Shown one piece after another: positions 231 through 860 of a stretch of DNA of 9,269 bases (position 1 is the first letter of the stretch; each line of letters opens with the position of its first letter). Under the pieces are notes generated by a model. That model was given only the letters and a program-made list of their open reading frames with translations, had not been told where the DNA came from and searched no databases. Position numbers and translations under genes: made by a program. Origin of the DNA: a virus (Duplodnaviria; Heunggongvirae; Uroviricota; Caudoviricetes); the IMG/VR virus record IMGVR_UViG_2718217789_000012; one strand, written 5' to 3'.

Positions 231-536
231 AGATCAACACGCTTTAACCGTTATCATTTTCCGGCCATCCGTTATGAAGCTGGTGGATGTTCCCCGATAT
301 GGGTATCCCCACCTACCTGGCTTTTTTTCCGGTTAAATGTTAATCAGGCTGGTGGCCTTTACATACCCTTGATCACGGTAATGATGATTCAGGTGCGTAC
401 CTTTTCCCCAGTGGGGTAAAAGCTCCAACCGTAACGATGTTCGTTGTGGTTGCCTTGATGGTCTGCGTGGTCATTATGACCATTCAGAATTTGAAGGGTG
501 ATGTTTCCGATCTCCTCAAATTGAGGATTGTGGAAG

Positions 537-756
537 AATCAATGGGTTAGTCTTACTTTCCCAACATCCCCCAATGGGGGTTTTCGAAATAATCAATGGG
601 TTAGGCCATAGTGCAATTTTGCACTATGGAACAATTCCAACCAGTTATCGGCATCAGGCCCACCAGCCAACGCAATTTTGCGCTTTGCTTTAATCTCAGT
701 AAGTTACCGCGCCAATTTCCGCAGTCTGTGGAAATTGGGAAGAATCAACGGGTTAG
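537..756. repeat. Three direct copies of the 14-mer AATCAA(T/C)GGGTTAG in non-coding DNA
   Basis: Copies at 537-550, 591-604 and 743-756. Copies 1 and 3 share extended flanks (GAAGAATCAA...). Confidence 0.5.
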
Positions 757-787
757 GCTGGTTTCCCCGATGTTCGCCGCTGGCGAA
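611..787. promoter_or_regulatory. Cluster of short inverted repeats in non-coding DNA
   Basis: GTGCAA-tt-TTGCAC (611-624); CGCAA-tt-TTGCG (671-682); CCAATTTCC-N9-GGAAATTGG (712-738); TTCGCC-gct-GGCGAA (773-787). Confidence 0.4.
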
Positions 788-815
788 TTTCGAAAATATC
801 AACCAGTTACCGCCG

Positions 816-847
816 TATCCCGATATGGTGATCCCCATATCGGGATA
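816..847. repeat. 13-bp perfect inverted repeat TATCCCGATATGG / CCATATCGGGATA with a 6-bp spacer, just 3' of the 307-aa ORF; a related half-copy lies at 292-313
   Basis: Read directly from the sequence. No T-run on either side, so not a canonical intrinsic terminator. Related sequence CCCCGATATGGGTATCCCCACC at 292-313. Confidence 0.5.
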
Positions 848-860
848 GATGCTGGAAAAA

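Follow-up and report, generated by a model that had tools for sequence, protein, structure and literature searches.

Results

The stretch of DNA analysed here (the window, 9,269 nucleotides, one strand) represents a phage-inducible chromosomal island (PICI) of 9.3 kb that lies between clpS and cspD in E. coli O157:H7, and this report concerns the non-coding region at positions 290-860 near one of its ends, in which we find a tandem array (513-809) of six units that combine a palindrome with a consensus-like site for integration host factor (IHF) and that are related to a segment found inside roi-type regulator genes of lambdoid phages. The window sequence is 100% identical to a chromosomal segment in several E. 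coli O157:H7 strains, where it is flanked by clpS on one side and by yljB/cspD on the other, and the island is of the Gram-negative PICI type described in PMC6092414. Aligned with the empty cspD-clpS site of K-12 and with the junction on the int side, the window has its att core GATARATAACTATCATYTAT, the left boundary of the island, at about 83-102, and comparison with the empty site places a second copy past the int end; 290-860 is thus inside island DNA. The region occupies the integrase-distal end, between the stop codon of the capsid gene and probable integrase arm repeats. The island genes, nearly all on the - strand, include those for a capsid-family protein (861-1784), a Terminase_2 small terminase, TerS (annotated at 1947-2435; Pfam), a P4/D5-type primase (3595-5349), an AlpA-family regulator (6960-7184) and the integrase (8046-9269, - strand); Pfam annotation finds no Roi/Rha (pRha) protein among the encoded proteins.

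A sequence-only reading of this region had described it as lacking a credible open reading frame (ORF) and as densely packed with direct repeats and palindromes, and both descriptions hold. Stops occur in all six frames, and the mechanically called ORFs at 611-883, 678-848 and 704-943 match no Pfam family; together with inconsistent reading frames within one of the units (unit 5, below), these observations led us to reject a decayed gene. The repeat density is beyond chance in dinucleotide shuffles: perfect palindromes with arms of at least 6 bp number 6 in 290-860 against 1.08 expected, a count reached in 1 of 1000 shuffles, and their summed arm length of 50 (6.9 expected) was reached by 0 of 1000. 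The perfect IHF consensus, WATCAANNNNTTR, occurs four times in the window against 0.59 expected, and all four matches lie on the + strand within 537-809, starting at 537, 591, 743 and 797. The individual repeats that had been listed were all recovered: three copies of AATCAA(T/C)GGGTTAG at 537-550, 591-604 and 743-756; two GCAA/TTGC palindromes (GCAATTTTGC), given as 60 bp apart and lying at a spacing of about 59 bp inside 606-629 and 669-684; the inverted repeats CCAATTTCC/GGAAATTGG, which pair over 13-bp arms, with a single mismatch, in a dyad at 712-738; TTCGCC/GGCGAA at 773-787; CCCCA-N-TGGGG dyads at 406-416 and 568-580; and a perfect inverted repeat with 13-bp arms at 816-847, of which a related 19-nt copy (89%) lies at 293-311. 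What does not stand is the picture of the 14-16 bp direct repeats as free-standing sites: the sequences are present, but they are the IHF-consensus tails of larger units, each about 50 bp long. Tandem Repeats Finder detected only the CACGAACAA repeats at 202-239 and missed the array, the units being too diverged.

Each of the six units of 513-809, which run head to tail on the + strand, pairs a palindrome with an IHF-consensus-like motif, the palindrome being centred 17-18 bp upstream of the motif; no two of the palindromes are alike. Unit 1 (513-549) consists of the palindrome TCCTCAAATTGAGGA (513-527) and the perfect consensus AATCAATGGGTTA (537-549) at a distance of 17 bp, and unit 2 (568-603) of CCCCCAATGGGGG (568-580) and a second perfect AATCAATGGGTTA (591-603), again at 17 bp. 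Unit 3 (606-647) carries CCATAGTGCAATTTTGCACTATGG, with 11-bp arms, 17.5 bp from the IHF-like TTCCAACCAGTTA, and unit 4 (669-706) carries AACGCAATTTTGCGCT 17.5 bp from TCTCAGTAAGTTA, each motif having two mismatches to the consensus. Unit 5 (712-755) joins CCAATTTCCGCAGTCTGTGGAAATTGG, whose 13-bp arms contain one G.T mismatch, to the IHF consensus AATCAACGGGTTA at 18 bp, and unit 6 (773-809) joins TTCGCCGCTGGCGAA to TATCAACCAGTTA at 17 bp. The IHF sites at 537-809, four perfect and two with two mismatches, are predicted by consensus match. When both strands of the window were scanned for palindromes centred 16.5-18 bp upstream of an IHF-like motif, the scan returned six units, all on the + strand in 513-809, and none elsewhere on either strand, while in shuffled sequences the mean count was 0.147 and the highest 2. 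On its right the variable array is bounded by the perfect inverted repeat at 816-847 (no strand assigned), TATCCCGATATGG-tgatcc-CCATATCGGGATA, which repeats, in truncated form, the beginning of the end module described below.

A search of the array against 50,697 phage records returned short matches only, and all of them fell, always on the coding strand, in genes annotated as roi, anti-repressor or DNA-binding protein; the phages concerned are lambdoid, and most are Shiga-toxin phages. Unit 1 matches the roi gene of JLK-2012 at 49 of 52 nt (gene nt 114-166), including a perfect stretch of 38 nt. Unit 2 matches VT2-Sakai roi at 35 of 40 nt (nt 134-173), and its counterpart in a 'PPMG' Rha allele (locus L309) is CCCCAATGGGG followed by TATCAATGGGTTA at equal spacing. 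Unit 5 matches 32 of 37 nt (nt 123-159) of a Roi-type 'DNA-binding protein' gene next to cI/cro in the Stx1a phage LC567819; its tail is identical at 24 of 25 nt to JLK roi, in a reading frame other than that of the palindrome. Unit 6 matches 35 of 43 nt (nt 123-165) of the equivalent Roi-type gene of the Stx2a phage LC567829. Four units therefore match four different roi-type alleles, each time at about nt 114-173 of the gene.

The phage genes have the same arrangement. The roi-type proteins carry an N-terminal Phage_pRha / winged-helix domain, for which we found no solved Roi/Rha DNA-binding structure, and every allele that we examined has its own palindrome followed at constant spacing by an IHF consensus-like site. 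The palindromes at the roi-gene position are TCCTCAAATTGAGGA, CCCCCAATGGTGG, CAATTTCCACAGACTGTGGAAATTG, CGCCAATGGCG, CTGCATTGCAG (HK022), CCCCAATGGGG and GCTGCATTGCAGC. All 160 of the 160 Roi N-domain loci from IMG/VR, taken from two scans with some contigs common to both, contain one unit at about nt 135-165 of the gene; the unit is also present, with an allele-specific palindrome, in HK022, VT2-Sakai, PhiR49_2, LC567819, LC567829, L309 and L310. The DNA of the palindrome encodes the one hypervariable segment of the protein (aa 42-52), which is flanked by invariant blocks and occurs in 32 variants among the top 120 cluster representatives of a family of 957 members. In roi-family genes (L002, L004, L005, L090, L091, L094, L309, L310), then, one stretch of nucleotides would both encode a putative recognition element just after the helix-turn-helix and serve as its DNA target, a specificity cassette that refers to itself. 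In several of these phages roi directly follows cro.

Phage HK022 offers the closest point of reference. Its Roi protein reportedly, in work dating from 1996, binds inside its own gene beside an IHF site, with IHF stabilising the binding, HK022 being the only phage for which such binding is reported. In 10 kb of the HK022 early region the sole perfect IHF consensus is at roi nt 153, and CTGCATTGCAG lies 17 bp upstream of it, so that the composite unit spans nt 131-165 of the gene. Set against this internal operator and IHF module, the array shows the same geometry in six of six units and homology in units 1, 2, 5 and 6 only, and it does not share the location of one copy per gene inside a Phage_pRha coding sequence. 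Since the array is non-coding, has six tandem copies and lies in an island without a pRha protein, we class it as a derivative of the roi module and not as a strict member; that it derives from the roi cis-element we hold with high confidence.

Units 3 and 4 have a different distribution. Among E. coli genomes blastn finds them in satellite end regions only, unit 3 in just 61 genomes and every time unannotated, and the unit-4 type in 905 genomes. A 14-mer scan of IMG/VR with the unit-3 palindrome gave unrelated chance matches only, the top 120 Rha-family cluster representatives encode no segment matching either unit, and an SAALQH allele inspected for the purpose has a different palindrome. 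As a side observation, another family of palindromes, (T)TACGAAA(A/T)TTTCGTA(A), is seen repeatedly in satellite ends (L009 3500-4700, an O145 island near dinD; L008 4340-4360; L093 3262-3276); in the window there is just the half-related pair TTTTCGAAAT (581-590) and ATTTCGAAAA (787-796).

On the integrase-distal side of the array, 290-500 is a module confined to satellites. Its conserved part of about 200 bp starts at 293-311 (no strand assigned) with CCCGATATGGGTATCCCCA, which is conserved in other satellites and is the copy related to the 816-847 palindrome. A sigma-70 promoter-like site on the + strand (358-385; TTTACA-16 nt-AATGAT) faces the array and is antisense to the island genes; in other satellites the sequence upstream differs and is still promoter-like by inspection (TTTACC-17 nt-GATTAT), and conservation starts just downstream. 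There lies a strongly conserved element, confined to satellites, on the + strand (395-497; about 95 nt) with three predicted hairpins at 401-422, 426-452 and 453-497 and a folding z-score of -3.3 on the + strand and -4.5 on the - strand. Nine distinct copies of the 426-452 helix include two G.U pairs that are possible on the + strand only, four changes of U.G to U-A and one compensatory change, C-G to U-A by way of a U-G intermediate; one copy has a broken pair. This thin evidence suggests a candidate small RNA or leader on the + strand, and the structured RNA offered by the sequence-only reading may apply to this sub-element only.

The Rfam 15 covariance models gave no match in 1-1000 at E <= 1, and elsewhere in the window only spurious eukaryotic or viral ones; the 395-497 element has no match among phages. 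A 24-mer taken from the element finds no exact counterpart in 185,579 species-representative genomes and is present in 13 IMG/VR contigs. The stretch AACGATGTTCGTTGTGGT at 433-452 resembles parts of the initial transcribed region at lambda PR'/qut (AACGATG...TCGTTGTGGT), a likeness judged by eye that may be chance. In the O157:H7 capsid-forming PICI (cf-PICI) at phoQ (L008), the RNA-like element is followed at 4190-4215 by AAAAACAAC-atattc-GTTGTTTTT, a weak terminator-like hairpin that would delimit a discrete RNA of about 110 nt; the window lacks this hairpin, and the element runs directly into the array. In L009 and L217-type islands an antiterminator Q gene stands between the RNA-like element and the array.

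Homologous arrays occupy the corresponding end of cf-PICIs, with 87% identity in STEC299 and 73-76% in phoQ-site islands, and these satellites have an unrelated packaging module consisting of HNH, TerS_P27 and TerL. The STEC299 array has extra units, and in that island the whole end module of about 200 bp is duplicated at the position of the 816-847 repeat. The sister island L093, which shares the clpS site with the window island, is 94.5% identical to it over 1-550 and 96.8% identical over 816-3000, and has unrelated DNA in place of 551-815, with only a unit-4-type module in common; the conserved right flank starts at the 816-847 repeat. Because arrays occur in cf-PICIs with different packaging genes, and because the array body is swapped in L093, the array is uncoupled from the packaging module; it is a swap-prone accessory cassette. 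Other satellites have different sets of units with unchanged geometry, and here and in the other annotated satellites examined all units point one way, opposite to the island genes. The two substitutions that distinguish the unit-2 IHF motif from that of L003 both fall at free NNNN positions. Part of the region is matched in about one in four complete E. coli genomes, some of the matches being prophage roi genes, and the carriers include enterohaemorrhagic E. coli strains and a cf-PICI of the prototype EcCIEDL933 type. RefSeq 'hypothetical protein' ORFs lie over homologous arrays (for example L003 6464-6766) and are probably false gene calls over non-coding repeats.

The sequence-only reading had favoured a cos-type packaging site, an interpretation that is not supported. 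Our searches covered the lambda/phi80 and P2/P4 types of cosN: no lambda/phi80 cosN (GGGCGGCGACCT) occurs in 290-860 at up to 3 mismatches, the only 1-mismatch match lying inside the primase gene (4196-4207), and the P2/P4 cos 19-mer has no match. Nor do the repeats look like binding sites for a small terminase that reads a single sequence, since the 13-14-mers correspond to the IHF consensus and every unit has a palindrome of its own, a variety that a single TerS could not read. A TerS of the Terminase_2 type goes with headful (pac) packaging. The motif GTAACTTT occurs six times (five +, one -) at 2206-2479 against 0.27 expected, with 12-bp spacing and in two clusters in or just upstream of terS, and this cluster is a candidate pac or TerS-binding site, a better candidate for the packaging site than 290-860.

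Two other known kinds of element were rejected. The region is not suited as a PICI replication origin, since it lies about 2.7 kb from the primase gene and not immediately downstream of it; that place is taken by the non-coding segment 3309-3594, a source of spurious Rfam matches, in which GTAGAGGGCTTT occurs three times (at 3414, 3487 and 3574, spanning 3414-3585) against 0.03 expected, within longer imperfect repeats and dyads, and these repeats are probably the iterons of the island origin. A repetitive extragenic palindrome (REP/BIME) element is likewise rejected, the REP consensus having no match at up to 3 mismatches. At the opposite end of the island, a 257-aa ORF between int and alpA (7276-8049, - strand) has a G+C content of about 0.27-0.33 and no match in Pfam, PHROG or PADLOC, and is likely an accessory or defence cargo gene.

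Discussion

The features that the satellite keeps are those of a protein-binding site on DNA. The palindrome, the spacing and the IHF consensus of the roi segment are retained and its neighbouring coding sequence never is; the satellite palindromes equal or exceed the phage ones in perfection (units 2 and 6 pair at 6 of 6 positions against 5 of 6, and L008 has 12-bp arms against 6-7 in phages); and their mismatches show no G.U bias, unlike those of the 426-452 helix. Unit 5 is a mosaic in which palindrome and tail come from different alleles and their frames disagree, with the spacing retained. The perfect dyads, the lack of G.U bias and the frame clash in unit 5 together point to selection on DNA dyad symmetry and spacing and not on coding or RNA pairing. 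Six different dyads, moreover, imply several different dimeric binders, which fits allelic Roi proteins and does not fit one terminase or one island regulator. We therefore describe the region as an end module specific to satellites, followed by an array of operator and IHF modules of the roi type in several alleles. Our preferred explanation, by homology with the HK022 roi site, is that 513-809 could be a platform of multiple specificities, or a decoy, for phage Roi-type proteins and host IHF, a proposal that we judge to be evenly balanced between right and wrong. The binding platform for the element's own regulators that the sequence-only reading had listed as an alternative survives in this form as a platform; its regulators would be those of lambdoid phages, together with host IHF, and not the element's own.

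How such a platform might work can be sketched. When a phage with a cognate roi allele is active, a Roi dimer would bind the matching palindrome in the satellite and host IHF would bend the adjoining site; several different palindromes would allow the Roi proteins of several phage lineages to be captured. One outcome would be a sink that lowers free Roi and so interferes with, or modulates, roi-bearing phages. Another would be a set of nucleoprotein roadblocks at the island end that separate the late operon, the att/int side and clpS by stopping transcription from passing from one to another, and that would also halt any + strand transcript from 358-385.

Several observations weigh against this proposal. 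Units 3 and 4 have no phage counterpart by blastn at E <= 10, and theirs are the two weak IHF motifs. The palindrome arms of 12-13 bp exceed a typical winged-helix operator, and the position given for the HK022 Roi site is a putative one, drawn from the reported binding inside roi and a consensus scan. There are also the helper data: the cf-PICI EcCIEDL933, which is of the type of the phoQ-site islands L007 and L008 that carry a related array, has been reported to be induced and mobilised by HK106 and HK446 and by none of the 17 resident EDL933 prophages. In HK106, nt 22,000-41,468, half of the genome with all of the early genes, contains no roi homologue and no composite unit. Since HK106 mobilises EcCIEDL933 without a roi gene in the half examined, the array would be neither an induction switch nor required with that helper, and the idea of an induction sensor is weakened on both counts. 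It is more likely that the array concerns other, roi-bearing phages, as a Roi sink or as roadblocks.

A more specific form of the decoy proposal, which we put forward as possible but doubtful, is that the array is a protein-free DNA device, a multi-allele operator decoy that would capture the Roi/Rha regulators of many lambdoid phages and serve either as DNA-decoy defence or to gate transcription at the island end. It would sit in the accessory end of the island, and its units would be replaced over time as the hypervariable self-targeting segment of roi evolved in competition with them. A search of the literature found no account of such arrays.

Five alternatives explain less. The array might act at the level of RNA, either as a 3' UTR that - strand read-through from the late operon would produce and that would carry segments complementary to the mRNAs of several roi alleles, or within a + strand transcript from 358-385 that carries sense copies, so as to regulate or sponge roi. 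The uniform orientation of the units, the 38-nt perfect stretch shared by unit 1 and JLK-2012 roi and the upstream element, with its resemblance to a structured + strand RNA, would suit such a role, which we nevertheless consider unlikely: identity outside unit 1 is only 81-88%, poor for antisense pairing, and what is kept or improved is dyad symmetry and the 17-18-bp spacing to the IHF site rather than identity to the phage sequence, in palindromes that are Watson-Crick perfect without the G.U bias of the 426-452 helix. Units 3 and 4, moreover, have no known target.

It is distinctly unlikely, in our estimate, that the array has no function and was left behind, as debris or a by-product, when satellites and roi recombined repeatedly at a recombination-prone palindrome. 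The wholesale swap of the array body between near-identical islands, the mosaic structure of unit 5 and the two orphan units would suit that case. Against it, the roi segment present is in every case the palindrome and IHF stretch of about 50 bp without any flanking coding sequence, in uniform orientation and spacing; the dyads are perfected rather than decayed, the unit-2 IHF substitutions keep to free positions, and related arrays are retained in many satellites.

The place of the array at the island end raises the question of an extended attP arm or excision-control region, an IHF-rich architecture that would aid the assembly of integrase or excisionase. Probable integrase arm-type repeats lie on the + strand at 177-230, as AACTACACC at 177-185 and 189-197 and CACGAACAA at 202-210 and 222-230, their function being assigned from sequence; a 73-nt block of this segment recurs upstream of int with 73% identity, and pairs of ACTACACC also adjoin arrays in cf-PICIs at other att sites, so that array and arm repeats travel together. 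Four perfect IHF sites beside such repeats would be at home in an attP. Against this, the array begins about 410 bp from the core, whereas the arm repeats are within about 150 bp of it; arm sites, and those of directionality factors, normally repeat a single sequence in direct orientation, unlike the six different palindromes; the sister island at the shared att site lacks most of the array; and the homology to roi alleles is left unexplained. We regard this explanation as quite improbable.

A packaging initiation site, cos or pac, is very improbable. The array does lie near terS and the capsid gene, and its repeats, dyads and IHF sites recall lambda cosB. It is also the case that the E. coli PICI EcCICFT073 carries cos sites, cos1 and cos2 together with a cosB of its own (PMC6739421), and that P4 and cos-type Staphylococcus aureus pathogenicity islands carry the cos of their helper. 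The array resembles these cases in that a satellite copies a cis-acting phage DNA element for interaction with phage proteins; it differs in that what is copied is a regulator operator, in several alleles, and in that HK106, a proven helper of a related island, lacks roi in the half examined. Besides the missing cosN sequences and the separate GTAACTTT cluster at TerS, this explanation is weakened by the related arrays in cf-PICIs with other packaging genes, by L093, which keeps terS and capsid (within 816-3000) with a different array body, and by repeats that match roi genes and not terminase-proximal phage DNA. Equally improbable, finally, is a 3'-end element like the RIB/RIP (BIME-1) elements, reportedly described in 1993, which would make the mRNA upstream more stable or shape supercoiling where a transcription unit ends: the array shares with them the combination of palindromes and IHF site at such a 3' end, here that of the late operon, but it lacks the REP consensus, its palindromes all differ and match phage roi alleles, and its elements are confined to satellites and not dispersed through the chromosome.

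Returning to the Roi and IHF platform, three known systems help to place it. The HK022 roi site has the same composite form, a perfect IHF consensus with the centre of a palindrome 17 bp upstream, and four units of the window show homology to the corresponding segment in other roi alleles; the phage, however, has one copy within a coding gene, and the island six different tandem non-coding copies with no Roi/Rha encoded. The iterons of the lambda origin are dyad sites of a DNA-binding protein inside its own gene, O, and co-vary with the protein among lambdoid phages, and the roi palindromes would likewise be dyad sites within the gene of their own regulator; the iterons are several identical copies beside an AT-rich unwinding region and serve replication, whereas the copies in the array are all different. 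E. coli datA, with DnaA boxes and an IHF site, and the incA iterons of P1 are non-coding clusters of binding sites that lower the activity of a regulator. These bind one protein of their own replicon, whereas the array appears built for several allelic proteins of foreign phages, and titration is only proposed for it.

Conclusions

For annotation, these results counsel caution against a cos label for this region and against the 'hypothetical protein' ORFs called over arrays of this kind. If the array binds Roi-type proteins, it would represent a new form of cross-talk between satellite and phage, in which what the satellite copies is the operator of a regulator, in several alleles, instead of a protein target or a packaging site. 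The roi/Rha family, poorly understood and very common in lambdoid and Shiga-toxin phages, would thereby gain a function, and modulation of Shiga-toxin phages by such islands could bear on the biology of the toxin phages.

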